Shown in pieces: positions 24,357-44,093 of a stretch of DNA of 64,000 nucleotides (position 1 is the first letter of the stretch; every line of letters starts with the position of its first letter). The translations under genes and the position numbers were made by a program. Source of the DNA: an uncultured Pseudomonadales bacterium (GTDB lineage: Bacteria; Pseudomonadota; Gammaproteobacteria; Pseudomonadales; Cellvibrionaceae); contig CANKXO010000007.1 in assembly GCA_947487765.1 (NCBI GenBank), positions 22,180 to 86,179 of the forward strand. The letters run 5' to 3'. Below the pieces are notes generated by a model. The model had not been told where the DNA came from. It worked only from the letters and a program-made list of their open reading frames with translations, and made no database searches.

Positions 24357-25265
24357 ATGAAAGAAATTAATGAGAAGCGAGTCGCTTATCTTTACGAAGC
24401 CGTGACAATGGGGACTATTCGTGCCGCAGCAGATAAGCTAAATGTTGCGCCTTCAGCTGTCAGTCGTCAAATAACATTATTGGAAGAAGAGCTCGCCAGT
24501 ACCTTGATTGAGCGTCACCGTAAGGGTGTCACAGCAACGGAGGCGGGTGAAGTCATTTTACGTTTTTATCGCGAAGCACTTTCCAGCGAAGAAACCTGCA
24601 TTTCTAAACTACAAGCATTACAAGGCCTGCAAAGCGGTCACATTAAATTAGCGATAGGCGAAGGCTTTGTGGGTGATTTAATGTCGGGCCCTCTACCTGA
24701 ATTTTCTCGACGGTATCCCTCGCTAACCTTATCGATTAGTATGGCGGGATCGAATGAAGTGATCCGCAAAGTAGAAGAGGATGAAGCTCATATCGGTTTA
24801 TTGTTTCATCCTGCATCACATCCGAATATTCGTTCTCAAGTTATCAGCTCTCAACCCATTTGTGCGATTGTCTCTCCAGAGCATGTATTGGCAAATAGGG
24901 CTAGTGCAATTACATTGGAAGAGCTGCTGGAATATCCCGTTGCATTACTCGAATCTCAATATGGTGTACGGCAATTACTAGGCATGGCCGAATTTAAGGA
25001 ACGTATTCGTTTCCGACCAATAGTAACTTCAGATTCAATTGCTGTTTTAAAATTTTTTGTGCGTTCTAATATGGGATTCGCCTTTCTTCCTGAATTTGTG
25101 GTGGCAAAAGAAATTGAAGATCAACAGTTAGTTGCAATTAAAATAGATCAAGAAATATTGGCTGGTGGCGAGGCGCATATGATTACTCGTTTAGGTCGTC
25201 AGCTTTCGGAAGGGCCACATTGTTTATTAGAGCATTTGAGAGCTTGGATGAAGGCATTTAGTTGA
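24357..25265 (+). CDS. LysR family transcriptional regulator
   Basis: An N-terminal wHTH (...GTIRAAADKLNVAPSAVSRQITLLEEEL...) is followed by a LysR substrate-binding domain. 302 aa. Confidence 0.9.
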   Translation: MKEINEKRVAYLYEAVTMGTIRAAADKLNVAPSAVSRQITLLEEELASTLIERHRKGVTATEAGEVILRFYREALSSEETCISKLQALQGLQSGHIKLAIGEGFVGDLMSGPLPEFSRRYPSLTLSISMAGSNEVIRKVEEDEAHIGLLFHPASHPNIRSQVISSQPICAIVSPEHVLANRASAITLEELLEYPVALLESQYGVRQLLGMAEFKERIRFRPIVTSDSIAVLKFFVRSNMGFAFLPEFVVAKEIEDQQLVAIKIDQEILAGGEAHMITRLGRQLSEGPHCLLEHLRAWMKAFS

Positions 25266-25518
25266 GGCTTTCAAAAATATATCGCTATATTTTGTATAAA
25301 TAATAAAAATAAGCTTGAAATTTATCGTTACAAGCCTAGAATGCACATCAAATTAATTAATGCAGAGACTTTATCTTTGAAGCATTTACTCATATTTACA
25401 AATTACAGCATCGCTTCTGGGGCCGATAGTGCCCAAGAGATACGCTGTGCGTCAATATAACCTGTCTAAGTAAATATAGCTGGCAGGTTTAGCCTTCCAG
25501 TTTTAAAAAGTTATTAAA

Positions 25519-25553
25519 AACCCGGAAGGCATAACTGCTTTTCGGGTTTTTTT
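25519..25553 (+). terminator. Terminator-like hairpin + T7 run (copy 1 of a repeated module)
   Basis: AACCCG (25519-25524) pairs with CGGGTT (25543-25548), followed by a run of 7 T. The string CGGGTTTTTTTATGCCC recurs at 26150-26166. Confidence 0.55.
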
Positions 25554-26128
25554 ATGCCCGAGTTTTAAAAGTAAATGATGAGAGTAATTAGAACTTTGCT
25601 CTTATAAAGTTGTTGGTAGTTGCAATTTTGACAAATGCATAAAAATAGGAGAGTTATTATTGAAAGTTAATCAGAGGCTTAGATCGTTTATTTATAGATG
25701 AATAGTGTCATTCCACGAGTAGGGAAAATTTATTTTACAGATAAGTTTTCCTCGCTAAATTATTGTCGAATTTTTGTGAATATAGCCGCAATGGCATCGC
25801 TCGCCTATTGATTGCTAATACAATATAACTTATTGATATATAGATATTATTTCAAAAAATACTATGCCTTGTTTTAATTTTTATTACGGGCTATTGTTTA
25901 AAAAGATTTACGAAACAACACATCCAAGTGTTAACAAAAAAGAGATTTAACCATGAACCGATTACTCGGAATAAATAACCATCATACAGCTTCAGAGTGG
26001 CCATTAAAGAGTCAGCTGCTGCCGTTTAGTAATTGTTATCGTCAAAATCAAGGCGATATGAGTTTAGAGATGTAATTTGCACTTTCCTTACCGGAAGGCT
26101 GCAAGGCCAACCGGATACGTTTTTTTGA

Positions 26129-26160
26129 AACCCGATTGGCTTTGCTTATCGGGTTTTTTT
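26129..26160 (+). terminator. Terminator-like hairpin + T7 run (copy 2)
   Basis: AACCCGAT (26129-26136) pairs with ATCGGGTT (26148-26155), followed by a run of 7 T. Confidence 0.55.
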
Positions 26161-26193
26161 ATGCCCTTCATGGATGAAGGGTACATCGAAAAT

Positions 26194-26243
26194 GCAGGTC
26201 GGCTTTTGCTCCTGCAAAACCGACATTCACGCCATCCATGGCG
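26194..26243 (+). repeat. Conserved ~50-nt two-hairpin module, copy A (loops GCTCCTGC and ATCCAT)
   Basis: GCAGGTCGGCTTTTGCTCCTGCAAAACCGACATTCACGCCATCCATGGCG aligns with 27383-27429. Shared blocks are GCAGGT, GCTCCTGCAAAACC, CATTC and CCATCCATGG. The stems differ but stay paired. Confidence 0.7.
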
Positions 26244-26498
26244 CTTGAGCAATTTTTTGAGTGCCCAAAGATGGAAGATGAACCCATAACGCTCGAGAAC
26301 CTTTCGAGTATTAAAGGATTAATTTTACATGGCAGTATTTTAGGAAGTTACTCCACAAGGATGTTTTTTAATAGTGCAATGCCCACTTACACGGCATTAG
26401 TTTTTTAACAATTTGGTCGCTTTTTCCGGCATATAAGAAAGGTAAATACATTCTCGGTAATCTCGATGAGTCGTATTTTTTACTTATATGCCAAGTAT

Positions 26499-26653
26499 GC
26501 CCCTATCGTCTAGTTGGATAGGACGCTGGGTTTTCAATTCAGTAACGTCGGTTCGCCGCAAGCGGACCGGTCCAAAGTTATAAACTTTGGCCGTTCAAGA
26601 AACGCAAAGCATGCTTTGCTTAACATGTTTCTTTCACCCATCTAGGGGCACCA
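26499..26653 (+). tRNA. tRNA-Glu(UUC)-like gene interrupted by an ~85-nt structured insert in or after the T arm
   Basis: The 5' part is canonical: GCCCCTA-TC-GTCT-AGTTGGATA-GGAC-G-CTGGG-TTTTCAA-TTCAG-TAAC-GTCGG-TTCG. The 3' end TAGGGGC-A-CCA pairs perfectly with the 5' acceptor strand. The intervening sequence forms hairpins CCGC/GCGG, CCAAAGTT/AACTTTGG, and AAGAAAC..GCAAAGC/GCTTTGC..GTTTCTT. Confidence 0.6.
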
Positions 26654-26663
26654 ATAATTTGTT

Positions 26664-26740
26664 ACGTCGATAGCTTAACTGGCAAAAGCTCTGGCCTCCA
26701 AAACCAGGCGATGTAGGTTCGAACCCTACTCGGCGTGCCA
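26664..26740 (+). tRNA. tRNA-Trp (anticodon CCA)
   Basis: Hand-folded cloverleaf. Acceptor ACGTCGA/TCGGCGT, D stem GCTT/AAGC, anticodon loop CTCCAAA, T arm GTAGG-TTCGAAC-CCTAC, then G-CCA encoded. Confidence 0.85.
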
Positions 26741-26749
26741 AACATAAAT

Positions 26750-26909
26750 GCAGTGATAGCCCCAATAGATCGGCAGATTTTTGTTTCATTGAAGATCAGG
26801 AGAGTGCTGGTTCGACAGCTTTGTAGGAGCAAAAGTTGGACGCTTGTATAGGCGGTCGAGAAGCGATTATGCACAAGGATGTGTATAACAATTCCGGCTC
26901 ACTGCACCA
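26750..26909 (+). tRNA. tRNA-like gene, anticodon undetermined, with a ~72-nt four-hairpin insert in the T loop
   Basis: The acceptor GCAGTGA/TCACTGC is perfect, followed by A-CCA. T stem GCTGG (26806-26810)/CCGGC (26894-26898), with TTCGA then the insert from 26816. The anticodon arm is a 7-bp stem (GATTTTT/GAAGATC) with an 8-nt loop GTTTCATT. Confidence 0.55.
26819..26888 (+). repeat. Four-hairpin insert module, copy 1 (inside the T loop of the 26750 gene)
   Basis: P1 CTTT-GTAGGAGC-AAAG; P2 CGCTT-GTAT-AGGCG; P3 GTCG-AGAAG-CGAT; P4 TATGCACA-AGGA-TGTGTATA. Order and spacing match 29484-29551, with compensatory stem changes. Confidence 0.75.
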
Positions 26910-26916
26910 GTTTTAT

Positions 26917-26993
26917 TTCGGTGTGAAGCAGAGTGGTAATGCGCCTGACTGTTAATCAGGAGTTCGTTGGTTCGACCCTAGCCGCCGGAGCCA
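26917..26993 (+). tRNA. tRNA-Asn (anticodon GUU)
   Basis: Acceptor TTCGGTG/CGCCGGA (with G-U pairs), anticodon arm CCTGA-CTGTTAA-TCAGG, T arm GTTGG-TTCGACC-CTAGC, then G-CCA. Confidence 0.8.
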
Positions 26994-27001
26994 ATTTTAT
27001 T

Positions 27002-27083
27002 GAGGGTGTTGAGCAGGTGGTGAGCTCAGCGGACTGTAAATTCGCCGGAAACTATGTAGGTTCGATTCCTTCCACCCTCACCA
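27002..27083 (+). tRNA. tRNA-Tyr (anticodon GUA)
   Basis: Acceptor GAGGGTG/CACCCTC, D stem GAGC/GCTC, anticodon arm GCGGA-CTGTAAA-TTCGC, a 10-nt variable region, T loop TTCGATT, then A-CCA. Confidence 0.85.
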
Positions 27084-27090
27084 AATTTCC

Positions 27091-27168
27091 GGGCCAATAG
27101 CATAATCGGTAAATGCCCCGGCCTCATAAGCCGGAGAAGGAGCGGTTCGAATCCGCCTTGGCCTACCA
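27091..27168 (+). tRNA. tRNA with CAU anticodon (elongator Met or lysidine-dependent Ile2)
   Basis: Acceptor GGGCCAA/TTGGCCT, D stem GCAT/ATGC, anticodon arm CCGGC-CTCATAA-GCCGG, T loop TTCGAAT, then A-CCA. Confidence 0.8.
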
Positions 27169-27186
27169 ATTAAATGATTAGTTAAT

Positions 27187-27261
27187 AGCGGTGTTGAGCA
27201 ATGGCTGCTTTCGGGTTTCATATGCCCGAGCTTGTTGGTTCGATTCCAACCACCGCAACCA
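27187..27261 (+). tRNA. tRNA with CAU anticodon, initiator-like features
   Basis: Positions 1-72 are unpaired (A.A) above the 6-bp stem GCGGTG/CACCGC. The 3' end CACCGCAACCA resembles the fMet end CCCCGCAACCA. The anticodon stem CGGGT/GCCCG carries three consecutive G-C pairs, and the loop is TTCATAT. Confidence 0.75.
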
Positions 27262-27265
27262 AATT

Positions 27266-27356
27266 GGAAGTGTGGCCGAGTGGTAAGGCAGCGGATTGCT
27301 AATCCGTACAGTGATAAATCGTTGCTGCATGAGTTCGAATCTCATCACTTCCTCCA
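27266..27356 (+). tRNA. tRNA-Ser (anticodon GCU), type II
   Basis: Acceptor GGAAGTG/CACTTCC, anticodon arm GCGGA-TTGCTAA-TCCGT, a long variable arm, T arm ATGAG-TTCGAAT-CTCAT, then T-CCA. Confidence 0.85.
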
Positions 27357-27382
27357 AAATACTCCGGTGATGCAATTGGAAG

Positions 27383-27483
27383 GCAGGTTAAGGCTCCTGC
27401 AAAACCTGCATTCCCACCATCCATGGTGGTCACATAGCCCACTTAAAATCGGTTTGTTGCGAGTTCGACTCTCGCCGTCTGCA
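27383..27483 (+). tRNA. tRNA-like gene (anticodon loop CTTAAAA = UAA, Leu-type) carrying the two-hairpin module in its 5' (D-arm) region
   Basis: The T arm GCGAG-TTCGACT-CTCGC is canonical. The 3' acceptor strand CGTCTGC-A pairs with GCAGGT at 27383. The anticodon arm is GCCCA-CTTAAAA-TCGGT (4 of 5 bp), and there is no encoded CCA (TCA instead). An alternative outer pairing is TGATGCA (27368-27374)/TGCATCA (27480-27486). Confidence 0.4.
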
Positions 27484-27492
27484 TCAGTTTTT

Positions 27493-27565
27493 CGTGAGGT
27501 AATTCAATTAGCAGAATGCGATTTTCATAAAATCGGCGATAGTGGTGCAAGTCCACTCTTCACGA
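27493..27565 (+). tRNA. tRNA with CAU anticodon, non-consensus T loop
   Basis: Acceptor CGTGAGG/CTTCACG, D stem ATTC/GAAT, anticodon arm CGATT-TTCATAA-AATCG. The T arm AGTGG-TGCAAGT-CCACT has G instead of T at position 55. The 3' end is A-CCG, so CCA is incomplete. Confidence 0.7.
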
Positions 27566-27574
27566 CCGGTTAAT

Positions 27575-27648
27575 AGCAGCGTGGTGTAACGGTAACACAC
27601 CGGACTTTGACTTCGGTATTTCAGGTTCGAATCCTGGCGCTGTTGCCA
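27575..27648 (+). tRNA. tRNA-Gln (anticodon UUG)
   Basis: Acceptor AGCAGCG/CGCTGTT, D stem GTGT/ACAC, anticodon arm CCGGA-CTTTGAC-TTCGG, T arm TCAGG-TTCGAAT-CCTGG, then G-CCA. Confidence 0.85.
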
Positions 27649-27688
27649 AATAGTATGTTGAGTAGGGTTCTAAAAATATTTAATTTTT

Positions 27689-27763
27689 GTGCGAGTGGCA
27701 GAATGATGATGCGCGGAACTGCAACTTCCGTTTACGCCGGTTTGATTCCGGCCTCGCACTCCA
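27689..27763 (+). tRNA. tRNA-Cys (anticodon GCA)
   Basis: Acceptor GTGCGAG/CTCGCAC, anticodon arm CGGAA-CTGCAAC-TTCCG. The T arm GCCGG-TTTGATT-CCGGC has T rather than C at position 56. Ends T-CCA. Confidence 0.8.
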
Positions 27764-27769
27764 AATTTT

Positions 27770-27914
27770 CTGGATATAGCACAGCCTAGTAGCGTGTTGG
27801 GTTTAACTAAAATACATCCAAGTATTTTGCCCTTCGGGTTCTTCGAAGTTCAAAACGTTCCAGACGTTTTGTGGAGCTCAAAGTTTGTGGGTTCAAACCC
27901 TGCTATCCAGACCA
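27770..27914 (+). tRNA. tRNA-like gene, anticodon undetermined, with ~70 extra nt between the anticodon region and the T arm
   Basis: The acceptor CTGGATA/TATCCAG is perfect, followed by A-CCA. D stem GCAC/GTGT and T arm GTGGG-TTCAAAC-CCTGC are present. The interior holds hairpins AAAACGT-TCCAG-ACGTTTT and TTTG-TGGAGCT-CAAA, the latter resembling the GYAGGAGC hairpin. Confidence 0.5.
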
Positions 27915-27926
27915 ATTAATTTAAAC

Positions 27927-28000
27927 GCGGTGTTGACCGAATGGTTAGGTACCTGCCTTCCAAGCAGAGGAAATGGGTTCGATTCCCATACACCGCTCCA
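27927..28000 (+). tRNA. tRNA-Gly (anticodon UCC)
   Basis: Acceptor GCGGTGT/ACACCGC, anticodon stem CTGC/GCAG with loop CTTCCAA, T arm ATGGG-TTCGATT-CCCAT, then T-CCA. Confidence 0.85.
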
Positions 28001-28008
28001 AAATTTAA

Positions 28009-28082
28009 TGAAGGTTGGCTTAGTGGCTGAGCACCGGACTTTTAATCCGGCTAGATGGGTTCGATCCCCATACCTTCAACCA
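28009..28082 (+). tRNA. tRNA-Lys (anticodon UUU)
   Basis: Acceptor TGAAGGT/ACCTTCA, D stem GCTT/GAGC, anticodon arm CCGGA-CTTTTAA-TCCGG, T arm ATGGG-TTCGATC-CCCAT, then A-CCA. Confidence 0.88.
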
Positions 28083-28115
28083 ATTACAATAAAACAACTA
28101 AAAGGAGATCGTATT

Positions 28116-29312
28116 ATGGCGATTAAAAAAGTATTGGCGCCGCATAAAGATCAGCGGTTGCCTGTAAAAATTTGGACGGATGATATTGATTACAGCACGC
28201 AGGCTCAGTTGAGTCGTGTAGCGAACTTACCATTCGTTTATAAGCATGTAGCAGCGATGCCTGATGTACATCTCGGAAAAGGCGCCACTGTTGGTTCAGT
28301 GATTGCAACCGATAAAGCTATTATCCCTGCAGCTGTGGGTGTGGATATTGGATGTGGAATGAATGCAGTGAGATTATCTATTAAAGCAAAAGATTTGCCT
28401 GATAGCCTAAAATTGATTCGAAACGGAATTGAATCAGTTGTACCTTTAGGTCCCGGAGGTCAACATCGTGACCCCAAAATTGCTGGTGGTCATGATATAT
28501 CAATGCGTCTATGTACTATTTTTGAAAAACACCCGAAGTTAAGTAAGCGCGTTAAAGTGAATGGGTTTGCGAAACAATTAGGAACGCTGGGCTCAGGAAA
28601 TCATTTCATTGAATTATGTTTAGATGAAAATGATGACGTGTGGATTATGTTGCATTCAGGGAGTCGTGGAGTTGGCAATAAAATCGGTATGTACTTTATC
28701 GAAATTGCTAAACGAGAAATGGAAAAATGGATGATTCACTTACCTGATAAAGACTTGGCTTATCTATCTGAAGGGTCAGAATATTATGATGACTATATTG
28801 AAGCAGTTTCTTGGGGGCAAGATTATGCGGCATTGAATCGCACGCATATGATGAATGCAGTAATGCTAGAACTACGTAAGTATTTACCTGCGTTTACAAT
28901 CACACAAGAGGCTATCAATTGCCACCATAATTATGTTGAAAAGGAAAATCATTACGGCAAAAACGTATGGGTAACGCGTAAAGGCGCAATCCGTGCGAGA
29001 AAGGATGATCTTGGTATTATTCCCGGGTCCATGGGTGATAAAAGTTTTATTGTTCGTGGTAAAGGTGAATCTGAATCATTTTGTTCTTGTTCCCATGGTG
29101 CGGGTCGACGATTGAGTCGTACTGCAGCTGCAAAAACTTTTTCCGTTGCTGATCTCGTATCAGCTACTGAAGGAATAGAATGTCGTAAAGACAGGGGTGT
29201 CATTGATGAAATTCCAATGGCATATAAGCCTATCGATAGCGTGATGGATAACCAAACTGATCTAGTGGATATAGTTCATACACTTCGACAAGTCGTCAAT
29301 GTAAAAGGCTAG
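28116..29312 (+). CDS. rtcB: RNA-splicing ligase RtcB (copy 1)
   Basis: The start was moved to the ATG at 28116, which has the RBS AAGGAG 8 nt upstream. The track ORF start at 27885 runs through three tRNA genes. RtcB motifs are present: GVDIGCGMN, GSGNHFIE, HSGSRGVGN, CHHNY, PGSMGDKS, SCSHGAGR. Confidence 0.93.
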   Translation: MAIKKVLAPHKDQRLPVKIWTDDIDYSTQAQLSRVANLPFVYKHVAAMPDVHLGKGATVGSVIATDKAIIPAAVGVDIGCGMNAVRLSIKAKDLPDSLKLIRNGIESVVPLGPGGQHRDPKIAGGHDISMRLCTIFEKHPKLSKRVKVNGFAKQLGTLGSGNHFIELCLDENDDVWIMLHSGSRGVGNKIGMYFIEIAKREMEKWMIHLPDKDLAYLSEGSEYYDDYIEAVSWGQDYAALNRTHMMNAVMLELRKYLPAFTITQEAINCHHNYVEKENHYGKNVWVTRKGAIRARKDDLGIIPGSMGDKSFIVRGKGESESFCSCSHGAGRRLSRTAAAKTFSVADLVSATEGIECRKDRGVIDEIPMAYKPIDSVMDNQTDLVDIVHTLRQVVNVKG

Positions 29313-29358
29313 AAAGGACTTAGCCTTTTCTTTCACCTCTTTCCTCATTTTTAATTTA

Positions 29359-29432
29359 GCCCAATTGGCATAGTGGTCGTGCAGCTGCTTTGTAAGCAGC
29401 AGAGACAGGTTCAATTCCTGTATTGGGCTCCA
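29359..29432 (+). tRNA. tRNA-Thr (anticodon UGU)
   Basis: Acceptor GCCCAAT/ATTGGGC, D stem GCAT/GTGC, anticodon arm GCTGC-TTTGTAA-GCAGC, T arm ACAGG-TTCAATT-CCTGT, then T-CCA. Confidence 0.85.
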
Positions 29433-29441
29433 GTTTACATC

Positions 29442-29593
29442 GCCTGATTAGTTCAATTGGACTTAGAGCATCCGCCTACGACAATTTTGCAGGAGCAAAA
29501 ATTGGGCGTCTATAGAGGCGATCGTGAAACGATAATGTGCAGGACGCATATTACAAACGGGAAGATGCGGGTTCGAATCCTATTCAGGTGCCA
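29442..29593 (+). tRNA. tRNA-Arg(ACG)-like gene with the four-hairpin insert in the anticodon loop
   Basis: The 5' half is canonical: GCCTGAT-TA-GTTC-AATTGGACTTA-GAGC-A-TCCGC-CTACGA. The insert follows from about 29482. The 3' part GCGGG-TTCGAAT-CCTAT-TCAGGTG-CCA has a weak T stem, and no clean 3' anticodon-stem strand was found. Confidence 0.45.
29484..29551 (+). repeat. Four-hairpin insert module, copy 2 (inside the anticodon loop of the 29442 gene)
   Basis: P1 ATTTT-GCAGGAGC-AAAAT; P2 CGTCT-ATAG-AGGCG; P3 ATCG-TGAAA-CGAT; P4 ATGTGC-AGGAC-GCATAT. Collinear with 26819-26888. Confidence 0.75.
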
Positions 29594-29601
29594 AATTTAT
29601 T

Positions 29602-29678
29602 ACTCTCGTAGCTTAATTGGATAGAGCGTCTGTCTTCGAAACAGAACGGTGTTGGTTTGATTCCAACCGAGAGTGCCA
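29602..29678 (+). tRNA. tRNA-Arg (anticodon UCG)
   Basis: Acceptor ACTCTCG/CGAGAGT, D stem GCTT/GAGC, anticodon arm TCTGT-CTTCGAA-ACAGA, T arm GTTGG-TTTGATT-CCAAC (T at position 56), then G-CCA. Confidence 0.82.
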
Positions 29679-29917
29679 ATAATTATTATTAATAAACCCG
29701 AGAATCTTTAGGTGTGGCCGTGGCAGATTGATAAATTTACCGGGAGTAAATTTAGACGCGGGAGAGAAGCGACGGCGCCCGTAGGGGTTGTAACATGGAT
29801 GTTACAAACCAATGTGCGCTTAACTTTGGCTTAAGTGCCCTTGGTTTTTGGAAAGGGGAGTTCAGGTCGCATCGGTCACCCCTAAAGGTTTTTACTAATA
29901 GAAAAGGAGGTCAAGCA

Positions 29918-30211
29918 ATGAGACTTGCTATAACGCGATCAGGTTTTTATAACGCTGATCTTTATTGCGCTGATACTCGTACAGCTAAAAGAGTGTTGCG
30001 TGAAAAAAATATTTCCATATTGGCTATCGACTATTATCTAGTTGGCCAGGGAAATGGTTGCGATATTATTGATTGGGCTAAAAGAAATGCAGTTTTGCCT
30101 AATTTTATCGTTGTTATTGAACGTAATCGCAACAAACGAGCCTTATTATCGAATACATTACGAAATATAGGTTATCGCTCTGGTGATGATACTACCTTTA
30201 TAAGGCATTAA
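29918..30211 (+). CDS. Small receiver-fold-like protein, possibly a degenerate 'cyclic-phosphate processing receiver' (cREC)-type domain
   Basis: The start was moved to the ATG at 29918, which has a strong RBS AAGGAGG. The upstream part of track ORF 29795.. overlaps a structured RNA region. The 97-aa protein contains ...ILAIDYYLVGQGNGCDIIDWAK...PNFIVVIERNRNKRA... This resembles from memory the hhhDhDLG...G.dhh.Wh...hhhHS.N layout of small REC-like proteins that accompany RtcB, but the catalytic-type residues are replaced. Confidence 0.45.
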   Translation: MRLAITRSGFYNADLYCADTRTAKRVLREKNISILAIDYYLVGQGNGCDIIDWAKRNAVLPNFIVVIERNRNKRALLSNTLRNIGYRSGDDTTFIRH

Positions 30212-30250
30212 ATTTAGTTAAAGCGACCACTATGATTAATTGAGAATAGG

Positions 30251-30814
30251 ATGATGAATATTCAAATTTTGCAGCTATCGAAGTCAGGTCACCCAATGTC
30301 TTGGGTGAACCGTGAAGAAGCCGCAACACTGTATGCAAAAAATAGGGTGTTATGGGAGCTGGGTGACGAAGTTATTCCAATTGTCGGCGGTATTAATCGC
30401 TTGGGCATTCAAAGTCGCTTCGATATGGCACCAATTATTGCTTGTGATGGTGATGTGAAACAACCTCGTTTACGACCATCGTTAAGTAATCGTATGCTGT
30501 TTCGCCGAGACGATTACCGATGCTTGTATTGTGGTGTTCAGTTTAATCACGACGGATTAACGCGGGACCATATTGTGCCGCGTATTCAAGGTGGTTTAGA
30601 TCGTTGGGAAAATGTGGTTGCTGCTTGTAAACGCTGTAATCACAGTAAGGGTGGTCGAACGCCAGAGCAGGCAGGGATCAAGCTATTGGCCATTCCATTT
30701 GTGCCGAATCCGTTTGAGTTTCTGTTTTTGGCAAATCGACATATTCTGGCTGACCAGATGGATTATCTTGCGACAAGCTTTTCGTCAAAGCGAGACTGGA
30801 AAAAAGTGGCTTAA
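30251..30814 (+). CDS. HNH endonuclease
   Basis: The HNH core is present: CLYCGVQFNHDGLTRDHIVPRIQGGLDRWENVVAACKRCNHSKGG. 187 aa. Two hairpins follow (30806-30826 and 30837-30862). Confidence 0.85.
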   Translation: MMNIQILQLSKSGHPMSWVNREEAATLYAKNRVLWELGDEVIPIVGGINRLGIQSRFDMAPIIACDGDVKQPRLRPSLSNRMLFRRDDYRCLYCGVQFNHDGLTRDHIVPRIQGGLDRWENVVAACKRCNHSKGGRTPEQAGIKLLAIPFVPNPFEFLFLANRHILADQMDYLATSFSSKRDWKKVA

Positions 30815-30991
30815 CTATTAAGCCACCCACATATTTGGAATACAGGTATTAACCTGTATTCCATACCGATGTTTATACGTATGTTGGCGAAACAGCGGCT
30901 CTGGTTCTGAATGCCAGGCTGGCACAGTCATGTTTTATGTCCTGTGTACCGATTCACTAACACGTTAAACAGTATGCTCTGAAAAAGCATA

Positions 30992-31064
30992 GTTTTTGTA
31001 GCTCATAGGGTAGAGCAATCGACTCATAATCGATGGGTAGCAGGTTCGATTCCTGCCTCAAACA
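30992..31064 (+). tRNA. tRNA with CAU anticodon (fourth CAU gene), weak acceptor stem, no encoded CCA
   Basis: D stem GCTC/GAGC, anticodon arm ATCGA-CTCATAA-TCGAT (perfect), T arm GCAGG-TTCGATT-CCTGC. The acceptor GTTTTTG/CTCAAAC pairs at only 5 of 7 positions. The 3' end is A-CAG. Confidence 0.65.
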
Positions 31065-31424
31065 CAGTCAGTTTTAATAAACTGAAGGAAAAGCCGAGAG
31101 GCTGAGGTTCGAATCCTCATTTGGTCTACTAAACCAAATATAAAACAAGAGGCTCATAGCAACGTAATGCTGTTATAGATTATGTTGCGTTGACATTAAT
31201 ACCGTTAATGATGGGTTAAGGTATTGCGTAGTAAATAATAAGTTTACCTCACTATCAACAGCTAAGGATGGTGTCCTAGGGATGGGGATAATCAAGAGTG
31301 ATTAGGTTAGTGTGGAGCAACCGCTGTATTTGTCTACCCATTACATTTAAGTTATTTACCGTACTCATGGCAAATGGGCCTCGCCATTATAGTCATTGGA
31401 AGAAATAAATAAGGGAGAATAATA

Positions 31425-32576
31425 ATGATTCTTTGGAAAACAATCGATATTGCGGAACATGAACGTGTATTACTTTATGTCCGTGATCAATTTAAACAAG
31501 TGCTAGGCCCAGGTCGGCATCGTGTCTCGACCTTGAAGGGAAAAGTTCGCCAGGAAACCTATGATATTACCGAAGTAGTATTCAGGCATCCTAAAGAAAA
31601 ATTTTTGCTGTCACACTACCCAGAAAAACTGGCAATGCACCTTGAGCAGTTTGACTTAAAAGATACTGAAGTGGGCTTGTTATATCGAAATGGCCATTTA
31701 ATGAATGTGTTGGCACCTGGTAGTTTATTTACAGTTTGGAAAGGTGTTGAGGATATTCGTGTTGACGTTATCGATATTAATAACCACTATCAGATAGAAG
31801 AGTCTTTAATTGGCTTATTGGGGCGAGGCATTAAAATTGGTCAAAGCCGAGAAGTCGTTAATGCGATTGCTTATGCAGAGGTAGTTGATGAGCATGTAGG
31901 TTTATTGCTGGTTAACGGTAAGCTAGAAAAGATCTTGCAACCGGGTAGTTACGGCTTCTGGAAATATAACCGTTCAATTGCGGTTAAAATGCTTGATCTT
32001 CGTTTACAAGCAATGGAGGTTAGTGGCCAAGAGATTCTGACCAAAGATCGCGTGAGTTTGCGTATTAACTTAACTGGTAGTTATAAAATTAAAGATCCTC
32101 AAATTGTTGCCTCTAAGGTGAATGATTACGCAGGTTTTATCTATCGTGAGTTGCAATTAAGTTTGCGAGAAATTGTAGGCACACAATCATTAGATGGATT
32201 GTTAGAAGATAAAGATGCTTTAAATTCTGTAATTACTCAGAGTACACGAGAAAAATTAGCGGAATACGGTATTCAGTTAATGAGTGTCGGGGTTAAAGAT
32301 ATTATTTTACCTGGTGAAATGAAGCAGATTCTGAATCGAGTAGTAGAGGCGCAAAAAGAGGCTGAAGCTAATTTGATTAAGCGTCGTGAGGAAACTCAGG
32401 CAATGCGTTCATTACATAATGCTGCCAAGATGATGGAAAACAACCCTGTGTTGTTACGTTTAAAGGAATTAGAAGCATTAGAAAGAGTGACTGGGAAAAT
32501 CGATAAGATTTCTGTCTATGGTGGCCTTGATAGTGTTCTTAATGACTTGGTAAAACTGGCGCCGGTCAAAACCTAA
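31425..32576 (+). CDS. SPFH/Band-7 (slipin-like) domain protein
   Basis: 383 aa. The C-terminal half is SPFH-like (...VSLRINLTGSYKIKDPQIVA...GIQLMSVGVKDIILPGEMKQILNRVVEAQKEAEANLIKRREE...). No clear N-terminal TM helix was seen. Confidence 0.8.
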   Translation: MILWKTIDIAEHERVLLYVRDQFKQVLGPGRHRVSTLKGKVRQETYDITEVVFRHPKEKFLLSHYPEKLAMHLEQFDLKDTEVGLLYRNGHLMNVLAPGSLFTVWKGVEDIRVDVIDINNHYQIEESLIGLLGRGIKIGQSREVVNAIAYAEVVDEHVGLLLVNGKLEKILQPGSYGFWKYNRSIAVKMLDLRLQAMEVSGQEILTKDRVSLRINLTGSYKIKDPQIVASKVNDYAGFIYRELQLSLREIVGTQSLDGLLEDKDALNSVITQSTREKLAEYGIQLMSVGVKDIILPGEMKQILNRVVEAQKEAEANLIKRREETQAMRSLHNAAKMMENNPVLLRLKELEALERVTGKIDKISVYGGLDSVLNDLVKLAPVKT

Positions 32577-32609
32577 AGAAAGCTGCTAGGTTATTTAGCA
32601 GCTTTCTTT
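32575..32609. terminator. Bidirectional terminator hairpin between the convergent SPFH and RT genes
   Basis: The 14-bp stem AAAGAAAGCTGCTA (32575-32588)/TAGCAGCTTTCTTT (32596-32609) is perfect, with loop GGTTATT. Confidence 0.7.
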
Positions 32610-32749
32610 GATGAGAAGTTTACCTTTTAAATGACTGTTTCATGCAATGATGAAACAATAGCAATATCGAACATCATTTGTTATTAATGAGTTAATTTTT
32701 TTATAATTGAATGCTAGGGTTGAAGTTCATAAGATGTTTTTATTGAGCG

Positions 32750-34531
32750 CTAGCGAAAAGATACAATCAAAAATATAAGTACAGCAATTGCCGCAAAAAT
32801 CATTACGCGAGCGAAGGGTTGCATAGAATCTGTATTAGATGCATCCGATAGCCATGGTGATTGAGATTCTTTCTGTTGTTGTGACTTAGTTTCTTCCTTT
32901 TTTGTTTGTTTTTTTGCGGTCGCTATTTGTTTAAGCTCTTCTGTAGTATTCTCTTTAACAGGTGGTGCTGGTGGCTCAGCTTGCCACCAGTTTTCGCGTG
33001 GTGCTTCACCGGCAGCGGCCTTTAAGCGTAAAAGTTTATTATTTAATTTGCCAATGCGACTTGGATTAACTTGATAACTGTATTTTTGTTTTAGTTGTAC
33101 TATTTGCTTTTGTAAAGGAATGCCCTTGCTAGGGTTAACCATTGCGACAAAGTTGGCGTAACCTTCTATGGAGCACAATAAATTGCTACTGCTATTGTGA
33201 GAACGATGAGCCCAGTGCTTACCCTCTAGCCCGCTTTTGTCAATTTGATGTAGTAAGGCTCTGAAGCGCTTTAAGGTCTTGCGATCAACGCTAAGGTTAT
33301 TATTCACTACCACGCCGGTCACTTCTTGTTTTTTATGCTTGCGCATAATGCGTGTTTTTTCGGGGTGAACAATAAAACCTTCATCCTTAATAATACTATG
33401 ACAACGCCACAATAGTTTTTTTACAATGCTGTCGTCAATATTCTGTGGATTAATATCATCGCCCTTGTTGGAGCTTGCCGAAAAAGTAACATCGTCAGCA
33501 TATCGCGTATAAGTAAAGCCTAATTTTTTAGCCATCCCTTGTAAGCGAGCATCCAATTTTCTACAGATGATATTGCTAATATTAGGGCTAGTTGGCGCTC
33601 CTTGCGGTAAAAAGCGCTCTCCGTTACTAACAAACCAAGACTGACTATCTAGTTCAACCTCCTGTGTATTCGCTTCGGTGCAAAGTAAGGCTAGTACTGT
33701 TGCAATGTGTTCACTGTAACCTAGAGCTTTAAACATCCCCTTAACTCTTGGATAGCTAATTGTTGGAAAGAAGTTTTTAAGGTCGAGGTTAATAACAATA
33801 TCTTTGCCTACATGAGGCGCAGCATTGGTTACGATAGAGCGCGTGCGTACAAAGCCATGAGCGGCATCATGTAATGCCAGCGGCTCTAAAATATTGGATA
33901 AAACCCAATACTGGGCAAGTTTCAACCGTGGCATAGGGGCAGATATTAGGCGAGTTCCACCGGTTTTCTTGGTCATTTGGAAGCGTTGATAATGACTAAT
34001 CGTGCAGACATCTTTTTGGTAGACTAAAAAACGTAGCTCATTAACGGTAATGCCCATGGCTCTGGCCAACATTTGGCTGTCGTGCAGTAGTGGTAACTGT
34101 TGGGCTTGGAGTTTGTCTTCATCGCTGTTAACTTTTGATAGCCCTATCGATAAACCTTCCCCTACGAAGGTAATAAATTTCTTTTGGATGTCGTACCAAT
34201 TCTTTGCTCGTTGGTATCGTGTTTCATTGCGTTCTTTACGCTTTTCTTCTCTACGAATAAGTGCTTCTTTTTTACGCTGTTTGTGTAACTCCTTTAGTGC
34301 TTGCTCTGGGTCTTGATACAATTGCTGTTGCTTTCCTAATTCACGCAGTTGCTTTTGTAACTGCCCGCGCTTTTCAATAAAGGTTTCTGTTAGTGTTGGC
34401 TGTTCACTATTTTTTGGCCAAAACCCAAGACGTTTCATCTCTGCTAAAATATAAACTTCTTTACCACCTGTTTCGCGTACGCGCTGGTAGAGTTCTTGGC
34501 GGCTTAATTTTTTAGTGCTTTCGTCAGACAT
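32750..34531 (-). CDS. Reverse transcriptase, retron/Abi-DRT-like, with N-terminal extension and C-terminal TM anchor
   Basis: RT motifs are present: NAAPH (NAxxH), INLDLKNFFPTI, LPQGAPTSP, YTRYADDVTFS, and QEVTGVVVNN (VTG). There is a ~190-aa charged N-terminal extension, a K/E/Q-rich tail, and a terminal hydrophobic helix MIFAAIAVLIFLIVSF. The RBS GGGAGA lies upstream. Confidence 0.9.
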   Translation of the reverse strand: MSDESTKKLSRQELYQRVRETGGKEVYILAEMKRLGFWPKNSEQPTLTETFIEKRGQLQKQLRELGKQQQLYQDPEQALKELHKQRKKEALIRREEKRKERNETRYQRAKNWYDIQKKFITFVGEGLSIGLSKVNSDEDKLQAQQLPLLHDSQMLARAMGITVNELRFLVYQKDVCTISHYQRFQMTKKTGGTRLISAPMPRLKLAQYWVLSNILEPLALHDAAHGFVRTRSIVTNAAPHVGKDIVINLDLKNFFPTISYPRVKGMFKALGYSEHIATVLALLCTEANTQEVELDSQSWFVSNGERFLPQGAPTSPNISNIICRKLDARLQGMAKKLGFTYTRYADDVTFSASSNKGDDINPQNIDDSIVKKLLWRCHSIIKDEGFIVHPEKTRIMRKHKKQEVTGVVVNNNLSVDRKTLKRFRALLHQIDKSGLEGKHWAHRSHNSSSNLLCSIEGYANFVAMVNPSKGIPLQKQIVQLKQKYSYQVNPSRIGKLNNKLLRLKAAAGEAPRENWWQAEPPAPPVKENTTEELKQIATAKKQTKKEETKSQQQKESQSPWLSDASNTDSMQPFARVMIFAAIAVLIFLIVSFR

Positions 34532-34689
34532 CTGCCTGTCTCCCTAATATAAATAAGGATAAATGTTGAGTGTTAAAAAAATGGATAATGATAGTTGTTA
34601 CAAGAACAAATAAAGAAGAGAAGTGCGCAAGATAAAAGGGTGCCAGCGTGCTCAATGTTTCCTTCGTAGAGCTCTTAGTACTGGATTGA

Positions 34690-34785
34690 TCAACTCGACG
34701 CGGCACGCCCCTACTATCGCTCATTGACTTCATGGAAGTCATACCGCAATAGCGATAGTAGGGGCTGTGCCGCCCTATGAAGATC
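34690..34785 (-). ncRNA. Highly structured non-coding element immediately upstream of the RT (candidate RT template or msr-msd-like RNA)
   Basis: A 22-bp interrupted inverted repeat joins GCGGCACGCCCCTACTATCGCT (34700-34721) to AGCGATAGTAGGGGCTGTGCCGC (34751-34773). It encloses a second hairpin TGACTTC-ATG-GAAGTCA (34725-34741). It lies in the 400-nt gap between the SWIM gene and the RT. Strand and ends are not determined. Confidence 0.45.
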
Positions 34786-34931
34786 AGGCCAGTGACGCGT
34801 GTGTAGTCTATAAACCAGAACGGCGATGCACCGCTCAAATTGCAAGGTAGATAAGTCACGCTGACACCTGTGCTAGTATAGCAGTGTTGTTAGGTTTTAA
34901 AAGAGCGCTATTAAAATTCTTCATGATCTCT

Positions 34932-36572
34932 TTAACCGTTTGCTAAGGAATATTGTTTTCTGATCGCTAATATATGTTCGCATGGCCCCATGCGCAGTAA
35001 ATTCGTTCGATAAAAATAACAGTCGCAGCTAGCCTCTTTTAAACGTTGATCGCCGTCAATTTTAATCTCAGTGTTCAAATGGTGTCCGTCATCAATGACT
35101 GTTCCTTGAATTTGAGCACCTCTTTCATTTTCTAGCTTATGATGAATTGTCACCAAGTTGGCGGCCACAAATCGAGCAGACTTTTCATCGCGCTCATTAG
35201 CAAAACGCAATGAGTCCATCGGTAAAGGTTGTTGGCTAAGTTCACGGATACGATAAACACTTCCGGCTAAATCATAAAGCACTTGCCCCTGTTGGCTATA
35301 GGCAGCCAATGCAGATTTCACTACTGACTCATCTAAATGCAGTCGTCGTGCCAGTGAGTCACTGGATTCTTGCCATGTCTCTGATAGTGCTTGGTAAACA
35401 CGTTTAAGTGTTACTTCGTCAACATCACCTCTAGGCGCTAATAGATCAAAGTTACCCATTCGTGACCAATCATTTGCTGACCAGCCCGACAAACCTAAGG
35501 TAAATGTCATATCGCCTAAATCGGCAACGTAAAAACTAGGTAAGCCATTACCTAATAGATGTACCGTAAATTTTTTGGCGATAGGGATTAAACGCTCCAA
35601 TATATGCAGGCGACGGCGCCCCCATATACGAATTGATCTAGCGTCATTTCCTGTATAAATGCTTCTGGCTAATATTAATTCTGTGCCCCATGGCTCTAAG
35701 ATAATTTTAATAGGCTCATCTGATGCCAGTTCAAATCGTATTGCCCGAGGGCCTACGCGCTCTCTTTTACGCCGCAACATATAACAAATATTGTGAATAT
35801 CCATTGGGTGCAATGTTAATGTGGTCATGGGTAAGGTCATAGCTGAGCTTACCTGTAAAAAACCACGCACCCAGCTTTCAGGAAGATCAATTTTCTTTTC
35901 GTCAAATTGTTCCTCATGGCTGGTTTGCATACTGAAACCATCGGGGTCAATTGCCAATGCTGTTTGGCGATACTCTCTTATTTTTTGAAATTCGTTGTAT
36001 AAACCTTCCGAGTAATCAATATTTGTGGTGCCGTAAGAAGTATCGGTTATATTATCAAATACGTCATAGCTACAGCTAAGTTTTCCGTAACTTGATTCAT
36101 CTTCAGAAAAACATTCAAAAAAAACTTCGTCGGGATGGACGGTAATTACTGGGTCAAGTACATACCAAGCATCCATATCGGTTTTATAAAGATGTTTGAA
36201 ATATTTGTTCTGAGCTGTATAAAAAGGCCCCATTAATGCTTGGCTTTGCTTGCTAAGTTCAGATAGTTCTTTGCGCACAAGCTCAATTTCGCCTTCCACC
36301 TGTGACTTGCGACCAATAAATTCTGCCAATAGCCGCTCTTCTTCTTCAGCTAGCCAGCGCTCGTATTCGCTGCGATCTTTTGGCTGAAAGCGCATATCAG
36401 AAATCACAACATTGTGTAGTGCCGATATCGCCTCACGAAAAGCTATTTTCTGCTTAAGCTGTCCTACAAAATAAGTAGGTAGGCGCAAACTGTCAGGCAC
36501 AAAAGATACATCTGTACTCGCTGCATTGCTCGCAACATGGCTCTGCCCATGATATCGATAACGAAATTCCAT
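34932..36572 (-). CDS. SWIM zinc-finger domain protein
   Basis: 546 aa. A C-terminal SWIM CxC...CxH signature is present (ASCDCYFYRTNLLRMGPCEHILAIR). It lies directly downstream of the WGR protein on the same strand. Confidence 0.8.
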   Translation of the reverse strand: MEFRYRYHGQSHVASNAASTDVSFVPDSLRLPTYFVGQLKQKIAFREAISALHNVVISDMRFQPKDRSEYERWLAEEEERLLAEFIGRKSQVEGEIELVRKELSELSKQSQALMGPFYTAQNKYFKHLYKTDMDAWYVLDPVITVHPDEVFFECFSEDESSYGKLSCSYDVFDNITDTSYGTTNIDYSEGLYNEFQKIREYRQTALAIDPDGFSMQTSHEEQFDEKKIDLPESWVRGFLQVSSAMTLPMTTLTLHPMDIHNICYMLRRKRERVGPRAIRFELASDEPIKIILEPWGTELILARSIYTGNDARSIRIWGRRRLHILERLIPIAKKFTVHLLGNGLPSFYVADLGDMTFTLGLSGWSANDWSRMGNFDLLAPRGDVDEVTLKRVYQALSETWQESSDSLARRLHLDESVVKSALAAYSQQGQVLYDLAGSVYRIRELSQQPLPMDSLRFANERDEKSARFVAANLVTIHHKLENERGAQIQGTVIDDGHHLNTEIKIDGDQRLKEASCDCYFYRTNLLRMGPCEHILAIRKQYSLANG

Positions 36573-36643
36573 ATTTTTGCCTGAGAAATTTTTCTGAAAA
36601 TTATGAATCTAATGCGTTTTTGTATAATTTTTATATAGCGTTT

Positions 36644-39600: not shown

Positions 39601-39820
39601 TGGATACAACAACACTATCAAATAGCTTCTCTGCTTTGCTAAGCTCAACAGCTTCAGGGGTTTTAGTGCCTTCTCTTAATTGATTGCCGCGACGCCCGTA
39701 TCGAAAATTAACGAGATAACGTTCATCTTTTCGGCTTGCTAACTCACATAAATCAACTTCATAAACTTTGTCGGAATTGCCTTCCTGATACACCAATCGA
39801 GATTGCTTGATTAGTCGCAT
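36644..39820 (-). CDS. WGR-domain protein with long helical (HEAT/ARM-like) repeat region
   Basis: 1058 aa. An N-terminal WGR domain is present (LVYQEGNSDKVYEVDL...YLVNFRYGRRGNQLREGTK...AEKLFDSVVVSKVNKGYW). The remainder is leucine-rich and alpha-helical in character. Confidence 0.8.
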   Translation of the reverse strand: MRLIKQSRLVYQEGNSDKVYEVDLCELASRKDERYLVNFRYGRRGNQLREGTKTPEAVELSKAEKLFDSVVVSKVNKGYWDREQAKQSPTTTSPTLAGVPSSNLASDDFPFKLIEQILNHLPNEKETKSRSRMIWRLGELGHRDCEPIANAIVPYIKKGHWLEDYSIAWALGRMVATQHKAVLETLRQHKQAQVCHIAFESQLLISDQTSRKALLGSHWQHFPAQFKSAVMEGNSSTAHQQLGALLSHGASDNVNNTNQLLVLCYQLSLAYPILHQALLSQLAIIPLTPGYFRGIRSIYKASELRLDGSVFGLLAQRIETAPAFFRNDWDWAWLPGEGSIKPSKELKKANAKLTFSHRTRDYFRRRSWRVLRRIGQAGDLRYVDMATESLLAINDEHGSKPRTSEVYRWDNSGDNWQRQLISSNEYGPFASFLSLNHILFEHHPGYQLAPSGRVWIKSDESNTDGTSLINGSRTECFAELWDQKPSHALRLLKTSRCELVHPFARRILENQPSFCQKISPVDLALLLNSNYASTCEFALAIVRERIKQDDLSSELLIALLSSSLTEARVLGKQSLLRFKINDDISLLTSLLLILHSDVQSDIKTAVCQQKISGRNAEKLLQAIVDSIFLENSNLSEKHAEYLADFALENLNDAIKHFPLTSLQRLIHDEKVPRKILGAKLLLGHKISYGDIPDSLLQAIHDSSSAEVRGIGAALLGKQADKDLIKQLDLLVGLYCKGDTQERASLLSIFSRLMTNSQQGSEQIENTLLALTFKSEEQPGQHEELIAFFTSLAQSHLTKLDNDMLWRLLQAQSICAQRVGAITLTERNADIFSVKQWAILGQHSDVSVRQFAFQAYEKNVDEIKQYSRDALRILNSNWDDARTFGFDFFRQQYSQEDWSPEIVIFICDSIRDDVQSFGREILQSFFKAEYGPEYLLKLSQHPSNNVQLFVSSFLEEYAAGIPSHILSLQAYFTTALSQINKGRVCKDRILLFLLREAEKDISVATMVMPLLERISLTMVHKDKAALIKAMLKLQSLYPDIASPLTAKKVPIKQPASLGV

Positions 39821-40200
39821 AGCTTCCTTAAACTCTTTTATTTTTTGATAAACTTATTTTTTTGAGTATAGCATTATCCTAATAATGGACAAGACTACAT
39901 GGCTATATTATATCTAGAGTTTACACTCGCTCTATCGTAAAGACTATGCTTCTATATACTTCATTCACGTTTTATTAGATAGCAATTATAACCTTTACCC
40001 CTTTCCCTGACGTGATTGTAAAGTGTTAATTTCATATTTGGGTTTACGGCGGTGCTATAATTTTGGTTGCTGTGTCAGGAAGTGTCGCGTTATTTTCAAT
40101 TCTAAAGGTTATCTTGATGAATGTGTTACCTAGCCCGATGACAAATATGTAATTACTATATTTTAAACAATTTTTAAATGCTTAACTGGTAGTAAAGTAT

Positions 40201-41460: not shown

Positions 41461-41464
41461 TAAG

Positions 41465-44091: not shown

Positions 44092-44093
44092 AT

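Follow-up and report, generated by a model that had tools for sequence, protein, structure and literature searches.

Bacterial L-arrays are supernumerary sets of tRNA genes that are horizontally spread, often include pseudogenes, and are linked to HNH endonuclease genes and frequently to rtcB (PMC8421152, PMC4758250); the definition of a tRNA array unit asks for 20 or more tRNA genes, co-oriented and closely spaced, with no fewer than two per kb (PMC4758250). Further marks of the class are silence during normal growth, induction under translational stress and aminoacylated tRNAs. Expression of the Anabaena L-array is induced by translational stress, and its authors proposed that such arrays provide a tRNA reserve or sponges for toxin RNases, together with repair by RtcB (PMC8421152). 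Bacterial tRNA genes themselves are held to be structurally uniform, the known interruptions being only group I and group II introns at position 37/38 (PMC4033280). Here we describe a tRNA array with an embedded rtcB gene, and the structured inserts that interrupt some of its tRNA loops, in a stretch of 64,000 nucleotides (nt) from an uncultured Pseudomonadales bacterium; this whole stretch is referred to below as the window.

The array is real and tRNA-derived: 14 canonical and six disrupted genes, 20 in total, lie within 4.57 kb, all on the + strand. The locus matches the published L-array class, and an island carrying a spare tRNA set is a kind already described, while inserts of the kind found here have not previously been reported in bacterial tRNA genes. 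We regard the inserts as mattering more than the array, since one covariation-supported element, type A, occurs repeatedly at the same T-loop position of different tRNAs. We consider it probable that the region is a mobile RNA-repair or translation-stress island, a partly decayed L-array with type A as a mobile structured RNA module, and for type A itself this is the most likely interpretation. Such an island, at 25.3-32.6 kb of the window, would comprise an attenuator-like leader, a supernumerary L-array with embedded rtcB, a cyclic-phosphate-processing receiver domain (cREC)-like gene, an HNH gene, a further tRNA and an SPFH gene.

Structured inserts in the tRNA loops

Compared loci of relatives are given L-numbers, L001 being a close relative (RtcB 95% identical, same LysR flank). 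The type-A copies of the window are:

26816-26891, + strand: first type-A copy, with hairpins P1 to P4; 89.5 bits with covariance model R1
29482-29556, + strand: type-A copy 2; R1, 90.5 bits
29732-29811, + strand: type-A copy 3, divergent, not in L001; R1, 30.9 bits, E ~2e-4

Nine copies align over 76 columns, and their 76-nt consensus forms four hairpins in which 17 of 26 pairs are changed on both sides (RNAalifold). With this structure fixed, 96.1% of cells are paired, versus 35-47% when the partners are slid; the covariation score is 0.559 versus 0.269 in shuffles, a value that 0 of 500 shuffles reach, and all five covariation measures lie above all 500 shuffles. R1 finds 11 copies, nine at 72-92 bits together with a decayed L003 copy (34 bits) and the divergent window copy, every one of them in a tRNA loop and on the sense strand; the rest of the 64-kb window has no match, and L004, L014, L037 and L144 have none either. 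The P1 and P4 loops retain GGA while the stems covary: GG is invariant, and the full GGA is present in 9/9 P1 loops and 8/9 P4 loops. The copies occupy the following sites:

T loop, position 58/59: tRNA-Phe (window, L001, L002), tRNA-Tyr (L002), tRNA-Leu-UAG (L003), tRNA-Lys (L143)
Anticodon loop, position 37/38: tRNA-Arg-ACG (window, L001, L002)
D loop: tRNA-His (window)

Type-A insertion is recent and recurrent, because a number of the sites listed lack the insert in sister genomes. At the His site the window has it and L001 does not, and at the Leu(UAG) site L003 has it and L143 does not; the Tyr site is filled in L002 and the Lys site in L143, and the Phe 58/59 insert is common to the window, L001 and L002. 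Among arrays with at least five tRNAs, type A was seen in 5/5 of those containing rtcB and in 0/3 of those without it (6, 19 and 20 tRNAs). A strict type-A pattern gave 0 matches in metagenome and viral collections. A loose P1 pattern returned 46 viral hits, which are due to chance or resemble ribosome-binding sites, and a leader pattern led to one metagenome array (L144), which has neither type A nor rtcB.

Between the window and L001, identity is 95.5% for the intact tRNAs (with 2 indel columns), 94.0% for type A, 87.6% for the exons of the interrupted genes and 85.8% for the spacers (exon versus intact, p = 3e-6; type A versus spacer, p = 0.003). By this comparison type A is as conserved as the intact tRNAs, and the host exons appear to drift like spacers. 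Divergence by category between the window and L002 is unreliable, because gene content differs. The interrupted and rearranged genes of the window, E1 to E6, are:

26499-26653, + strand: E1, tRNA-Glu(UUC) with a T-loop insert of ~79 nt (26556-26634); from L001 comparison and in silico excision
26750-26909, + strand: E2, tRNA-Phe(GAA)-derived, type-A insert in the T loop at 58/59; L001 orthologue at 6693-6845
27361-27486, + strand: E3, recombinant remnant with a type-B D-loop insert of 49 nt (27383-27431); from alignment to L001 Leu genes
27770-27914, + strand: E4, tRNA-like gene missed by ARAGORN and Rfam; nhmmer homologues in relatives
29442-29593, + strand: E5, tRNA-Arg(ACG), type-A insert directly after anticodon-loop position 37; from excision and L001 comparison
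29714-29882, + strand: E6, orthologue of L001 tRNA-His(GUG) at 9605-9678; from alignment and double excision

As they stand, all six score below the gathering score of the Rfam tRNA model (RF00005, 29 bits). A preliminary description of this DNA had counted 19 tRNA genes; 14 of these are canonical, and the other five (26499, 26750, 27361, 27770 and 29442) fail both ARAGORN and the Rfam model, though they are tRNA-derived and retain acceptor stems and mostly CCA ends. It had overlooked E6, which brings the true total to 20. Orthologues of such genes in L001 are an intact tRNA-Glu and three intact tRNA-Leu genes.

The individual genes have decayed to different degrees. E1, whose counterpart is intact in L001 (6520-6595), has an altered 3' strand of the T stem, and excision of its insert yields a tRNA-Glu by ARAGORN. 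We also considered this insert as a copy of a leader terminator and rejected it, the similarity being marginal (score 24 versus a shuffle mean of 18, reached by 3/200 shuffles). In E2 the anticodon stem is destroyed (the 5' strand is degenerate) and excision gives no tRNA-Phe; the L001 orthologue does give tRNA-Phe after excision (ARAGORN). E3 combines a 5' part from tRNA-Leu(UAA) with a 3' part from tRNA-Leu(CAA), and has unmatched acceptor strands and no CCA. E4 keeps a 7-bp acceptor stem, a CCA end and a T arm, with a 15-nt anticodon loop and a variable region expanded to ~65 nt; nhmmer finds homologues in L002 (7740-7880, 68 bits) and L001 (7692-7801). E5 has a weak T stem and, relative to L001, a 1-nt deletion in the 3' acceptor strand, and its excised form is among the ARAGORN calls as tRNA-Arg(acg). 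E6 holds two inserts, the divergent type A in the D loop and ~16 nt near 29837-29852; its anticodon differs from that of L001 by G34 to U (UUG replacing GUG), and double excision restores a cloverleaf with anticodon ttg. Overall, excision of one segment gives an ARAGORN tRNA for Glu (window), Phe (L001), Tyr (L002), Arg(ACG) (window, L001 and L002), Leu(UAG) (L003) and Lys (L143).

Two observations on other genes of these arrays may be added. The array tRNA-Leu genes (UAA, UAG, CAA) are 77-78 nt long with a short variable loop (L001 7299-7543; L002 7496-7654; L037 4356-4515; L143 4556-4715); bacterial tRNA-Leu has, as a rule, a long variable arm. The rtcB-less L037 array also holds truncated or degenerate tRNAs (Tyr, Ser and a Val-like gene, at 4225-4356 and 5018-5108), and the broken tRNAs of rtcB-less arrays arose by deletion, not through structured inserts.

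A second insert type is present in both the leader and E3. The leader copy is:

26197-26248, + strand: type-B insert (a leader GGA unit in inverted orientation) in the AGGA loop of a leader hairpin; absent at the L001 site

It is 88% identical over 34 nt to 27393-27426. The reverse complement of type B scores 30-32 against the leader units and the forward strand 10-18; because type B is thus the reverse complement of a leader GGA-hairpin unit, related units occur in both orientations.

Could the inserts be true tRNA introns, with an endonuclease cutting both junctions and RtcB joining the exons into working tRNAs? Type A occupies 37/38 and loop sites that are structurally tolerant, in every case on the sense strand. 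Its fold is under selection, it has been found only in arrays that contain rtcB, and insertions of recent date excise to perfect cloverleaves (Tyr in L002, Leu in L003, Lys in L143, Phe and Arg in L001). The junctions themselves speak against splicing of the archaeal EndA type, as there is no bulge-helix-bulge: P1 starts at insert base 1, the consensus fold ends in an unpaired ACAA tail, and the two junctions do not pair. EndA had no match in the window or the compared loci, a search made with an approximate query and carrying little weight. Group I and group II introns were judged by a catalytic core, a length of roughly 200 nt or more and an Rfam match; the inserts are 49-82 nt, and no Rfam intron model matched at E<=10 within 25200-31500, nor did any small self-cleaving ribozyme (hammerhead, twister, pistol, hatchet, HDV-like). 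The only endonuclease candidate is the HNH protein, whose family occurs in hundreds of genomes as a stand-alone gene without tRNAs; as a marker of the system it was rejected, since the family occupies at least 599 genomic loci, only 2/80 sampled carry tRNA arrays, and the neighbours vary. Moreover, exon divergence in the interrupted genes is like that of the spacers, the anticodon arm is gone from two of three Phe orthologues, and the related type-B insert is antisense. We therefore regard working introns as quite unlikely, and the specific proposal that type A (and perhaps other inserts) represents new non-self-splicing bacterial tRNA introns, moving between tRNAs and with exons joined by the array RtcB, as more doubtful still.

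The opposite extreme would be an array without present function, left to decay after the arrival of a phage or integrative element, with inserts that are neutral junk. Six of the 20 genes are disrupted, degenerate features extend to the U55-to-G change at 27493, the acceptor mismatches at 30992 and the anticodon change of E6, and relatives differ in their tRNA count, with values between 0 and 20. Decay without function does not sit well with the greater conservation of the intact tRNAs than of the spacers, with the pairing that type A keeps through compensatory changes, or with a leader and module conserved across genera. No phage relative was found: blastn against phages matched rtcB only (64-69% identity), and phage genes do not flank the array, so an origin from a phage or prophage was rejected. 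On balance we consider a functionless relic unlikely.

The tRNA set

ARAGORN identifies 14 tRNAs between 26664 and 31065, every one on the + strand, and the same 14, most of the array, score 41.6-65.5 bits with the Rfam model, above its threshold:

26664-26740, + strand: tRNA-Trp(CCA), Rfam 55.2 bits
26917-26993, + strand: tRNA-Asn(GTT), Rfam 41.6 bits
27002-27083, + strand: tRNA-Tyr(GTA), Rfam 50.5 bits; the L002 orthologue has a type-A insert
27091-27168, + strand: tRNA with CAT anticodon (Met or Ile2), Rfam 56.6 bits
27187-27261, + strand: tRNA with CAT anticodon and an A1/A72 mismatch, Rfam 42.9 bits
27266-27356, + strand: tRNA-Ser(GCT), Rfam 64.6 bits
27493-27567, + strand: tRNA with CAT anticodon and no encoded CCA, Rfam 48.6 bits
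27575-27648, + strand: tRNA-Gln(TTG), Rfam 60.2 bits
27689-27763, + strand: tRNA-Cys(GCA), Rfam 54.7 bits
27927-28000, + strand: tRNA-Gly(TCC), Rfam 60 bits
28009-28082, + strand: tRNA-Lys(TTT), Rfam 61.3 bits; the L143 equivalent has a type-A insert
29359-29432, + strand: tRNA-Thr(TGT), Rfam 63.5 bits
29602-29678, + strand: tRNA-Arg(TCG), Rfam 65.5 bits
30992-31065, + strand: tRNA with CAT anticodon, two acceptor-stem mismatches and no CCA, Rfam 61 bits

The claim of a tRNA array in the preliminary description is thus borne out, and its details hold: the anticodons it had read by hand are correct throughout, as are the 4-nt spacer at 27261/27266, the 33-nt gap between the end of tRNA-Lys (28082) and the rtcB start codon (ATG at 28116), and the AAGGAG ribosome-binding site before rtcB. 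The T loop of the tRNA at 27493 reads TGCAAGT, against TTCAAGT in L001. Past the last tRNA, a T-arm-like hairpin (TGAGGTTCGAATCCTCA) stands alone at 31103-31119 and is kept in L001; a tRNA gene was probably lost here, leaving this remnant.

An ordinary housekeeping tRNA operon would likewise be dense and co-oriented, mostly with encoded CCA, as this array is. In a housekeeping operon, however, the Phe, Glu and His copies would not be expected to be non-functional, each having a single anticodon species, nor would the island lie at different loci and be absent or reduced to 0-2 tRNAs in relatives; we regard this explanation as extremely improbable. Because those three copies are disrupted although each is a single anticodon species, and because modules of relatives hold as few as 0-2 tRNAs, the set must, as judged from these comparisons, be supernumerary and horizontally spread.

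The preliminary description had taken the anticodon set to be enriched for ribotoxin targets. In that account selection specifically favoured tRNAs that substitute for, or act as decoys of, those cut by anticodon nucleases (PrrC, gamma-toxin, colicins E5 and D, VapC), with RtcB resealing what is cut. The position of rtcB inside the array agrees with it, as do the presence of Lys(UUU), Gln(UUG), Tyr, Asn and Arg and the general idea of sponge plus repair published for L-arrays. The enrichment itself is not borne out, since the homologous arrays (L037, L144) cover 14-16 amino acids, so that any list of targets would be covered by default. The set has no gene for Asp, which colicin E5 targets; its copies for Glu(UUC), Arg(ACG) and His are the disrupted ones; and its genes for Trp, Ser, Cys, Gly and Thr have stayed intact. 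The U34 excess that had been pointed out follows from a set with one tRNA per codon box and needs no special explanation. What survives of the earlier interpretation, a reserve or decoy set expressed with a ligase, equals the published L-array hypothesis, whose authors had already proposed a reserve or sponge together with RtcB (PMC8421152); selection for a particular set of targets we consider decidedly unlikely.

Leader, partner genes and chromosomal surroundings

Besides the tRNAs, the module consists of a leader and four protein genes (ORF, open reading frame):

25315-26498, + strand: conserved leader of ~1.2 kb; promoter scan and conserved blocks
28116-29312, + strand: rtcB, 398 aa, 3'-phosphate/5'-hydroxyl RNA ligase; Pfam RtcB PF01139, 427.8 bits
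29918-30211, + strand: cREC-like ORF, 97 aa; weak Pfam match, conserved beside rtcB
30251-30814, + strand: HNH endonuclease, 187 aa; Pfam HNH_5 55.4 bits and HNH 46.2 bits, orthologues in L001-L004
31425-32576, + strand: SPFH/Band-7 protein; Pfam Band_7, 107.7 bits

The order is leader, tRNAs, rtcB, tRNAs, cREC-like ORF, HNH, tRNA and SPFH. The leader begins with a promoter-like site (TTGAAA-16-TAGAAT, 25315-25342, from a promoter scan) and contains three hairpin-plus-T-run sites (25520-25556, 26128-26160 and 26372-26404), mutually exclusive pairings around GCCTTCCAG, and, just before the second of these sites, a 40-codon ORF (25953-26075) that is possibly a leader peptide. It looks like a multi-step attenuator, a reading drawn from these sequence features. 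GGA-loop hairpin units lie within it (26160-26400). Its blocks are conserved relative to L001 and, by eye, also L003, L014, L037, L135, L137 and L140, and nothing in Rfam matches it at E<=10. L137 lacks tRNAs, and there the same leader directly abuts rtcB; because the leader stands directly before rtcB in such tRNA-less relatives, the array occupies part of the 5' region of rtcB, which makes co-transcription plausible. The suggestion that array and rtcB form one transcript is to this extent supported: the two share their orientation, and nothing resembling a terminator separates tRNA-Lys from rtcB. Runs of GGA-loop hairpins (ATGGAT, AGGA, CAAGGATGT) also recur ahead of the array, rtcB and the SPFH gene (window 26160-26400 and 31250-31300; L137 4820-4960; L140 7050-7130) and call to mind leaders bound by Csr/Rsm proteins.

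RtcB matches its Pfam family over its full length (residues 31-398) and is 95-78% identical to the RtcB proteins of L001-L004; an exact look-up of its sequence gave no record. The 97-aa ORF matches Pfam cREC_REC (PF20274) weakly (20.6 bits, E 7e-4, against a cut-off of 27), and four of five orthologues also match below the cut-off (best E 3e-4); cRec domains have been linked to RNA ligases (PMC7824862). SPFH is a usual neighbour of this RtcB clade, adjoining RtcB in L001, L003, L005-L008, L135 and L140. RtcB relatives of the next clade out (64-69% identity) belong to RtcR / SPFH / (RlaP) / RtcB operons, and RtcR is present in L005-L007; within 25265-40201 of the window no ORF encodes RtcR (CARF plus sigma-54 activator) or RtcA, and none encodes an integrase. 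The module recurs with 0 to about 20 tRNAs in different chromosomal neighbourhoods among Cellvibrionaceae (L001-L004 and L135-L143), and arrays homologous in leader and gene order but without rtcB are found in L037 (19 tRNAs), L144 (20) and L014 (6). An ArfA-like ORF (alternative ribosome-rescue factor) lies inside the arrays of L002 (6667-6813), L003 (7162-7302), L004 (7474-7632) and L143 (4272-4412) and is missing from the window and L001.

The window is chromosomal (~41% G+C), with metabolic genes at both flanks, and its RtcB homologues assign it to Cellvibrionaceae or close by. Beside the island, on the - strand, is a type XIII retron defence system (32750-39820, PADLOC; RT_XIII 623 bits, SWIM_XIII 771, WGR_XIII 1030, and a 111-aa ORF at 34524-34859). 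It was recently inserted there, because it is absent from the syntenic L001 locus, where SPFH is followed directly by cca. Directly downstream, in the same arrangement as in L001, is a second RNA-repair cluster (40201-44789) of a CCA-adding enzyme (621 bits), RlaP, a second RtcB (408 aa) and a PrfH-like RF-1 domain protein.

Taken as a mobile stress island, the locus might work as follows. The leader would keep the operon silent until translation is impaired, by analogy with the Anabaena L-array, and the transcript would then supply extra tRNAs together with a ligase able, going by RtcB biochemistry, to reseal tRNAs cut to 2',3'-cyclic-phosphate and 5'-OH ends. Type A would use tRNA loops as landing sites and persist because selection acts on its fold and on its GGA loops, the latter probably serving as a binding surface for a (putative) protein of the CsrA/Rsm kind. 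A host tRNA would mostly cease to act as a tRNA and serve at best as a processing scaffold.

Several points weigh against this interpretation. A clear promoter directly before the array was not found, and three terminator-like sites lie upstream of it. A CsrA-type role is suggested only by resemblance of motifs; the Rfam models of CsrB, CsrC and RsmX/Y/Z give no match at E<=10, and GGA-motif enrichment is modest, with nine of the window's 22 A.GGATG sites in 25300-31424, three of them inside rtcB. Type A is carried by two to three independent lineages only, so its restriction to rtcB arrays may reflect shared descent, and neither terminal inverted repeats nor a clear target-site duplication was seen for it. 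Finally, the exon drift was measured over 340 columns that include E1 and E4, which are not type-A hosts.

Comparison with known systems

The RtcB family of the island is that of the RtcR-regulated rtcBA operon of E. coli and Salmonella and of its RtcR/SPFH/RlaP/RtcB variants, and SPFH has been kept; unlike these operons, rtcB here has no RtcR, RtcA or sigma-54 activator beside it and is accompanied by tRNAs and HNH instead. Phage tRNA clusters (T4-like and jumbo phages; PMC7824862) likewise combine a tRNA set with RtcB or cRec, alongside HNH or homing endonucleases, but the present locus has no phage genes, no phage relative beyond about 66% DNA identity within rtcB, and a chromosomal context. 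A Y RNA (YrlA)/Rsr module was considered and rejected (YrlA 24.3 bits against a gathering score of 69, and no TROVE (Ro60) ORF in the island).

The inserts resemble the protein-spliced tRNA introns of Archaea, among them the multiple, non-canonical and paralogous introns of Thermoproteales (PMC4033280, PMC4090602), which are also under 100 nt, lie at 37/38 and in the D and T loops, may number more than one per gene, include related inserts at different positions, and have RtcB as the cognate ligase. The present inserts differ in lacking a bulge-helix-bulge and a visible EndA homologue, in their bacterial host, and in exons apparently under relaxed constraint. Were type A spliced, enzymatic tRNA splicing would exist in Bacteria as a counterpart of archaeal and eukaryal splicing.

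As short, ORF-less, multicopy units in hairpin loops, polymorphic in presence and with a related unit in both orientations, the inserts also recall insertion sequence elements specific for the loops of repetitive extragenic palindromes, and miniature inverted-repeat transposable elements. Unlike such elements, they have no terminal inverted repeats, clear target duplication or nearby transposase, their copies all lie inside one island, and their stems are compensated. If type A is simply selfish, it would be a new kind of loop-targeting mobile element.

Repeated GGA-loop hairpins, arranged as tandem units in the leader, resemble the Csr/Rsm sponge RNAs (CsrB, RsmY/Z), in that several GGA motifs (ATGGAT and AGGA loops in the leader units) are displayed in hairpin loops; in contrast to those RNAs, the units have no Rfam Csr/Rsm match and are embedded in tRNA genes. 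CAGGAxG and ACAAGGAUGU resemble the CsrB repeat and the consensus from CsrA selection experiments (SELEX). No csrA was found in the window, with an approximate query that carries little weight. If retained in the transcript, type A would be a natural tRNA-scaffolded RNA module. Aurantivibrio infirmus (L003) and Simiduia are culturable relatives.

It is with the L-arrays that the locus as a whole agrees best: dense, co-oriented, supernumerary tRNAs, some of them pseudogenes, with patchy distribution and linkage to both HNH (30251-30814) and rtcB (28116-29312). The array reaches 20 genes only if the six disrupted ones are counted with the 14 intact, and the related arrays L037 and L144 have 19-20 intact genes. 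In contrast to the Anabaena L-array, the host is gammaproteobacterial, rtcB lies within the array and not merely nearby, and tRNA loops carry structured inserts; the partners include cREC-like, SPFH and (in relatives) ArfA genes, and three terminator-like leader sites replace the direct-repeat promoter. A gammaproteobacterial member with embedded rtcB thereby joins the L-array class and ties it to SPFH, cREC and ArfA, which supports the view of these islands as an answer to translational or RNA damage.

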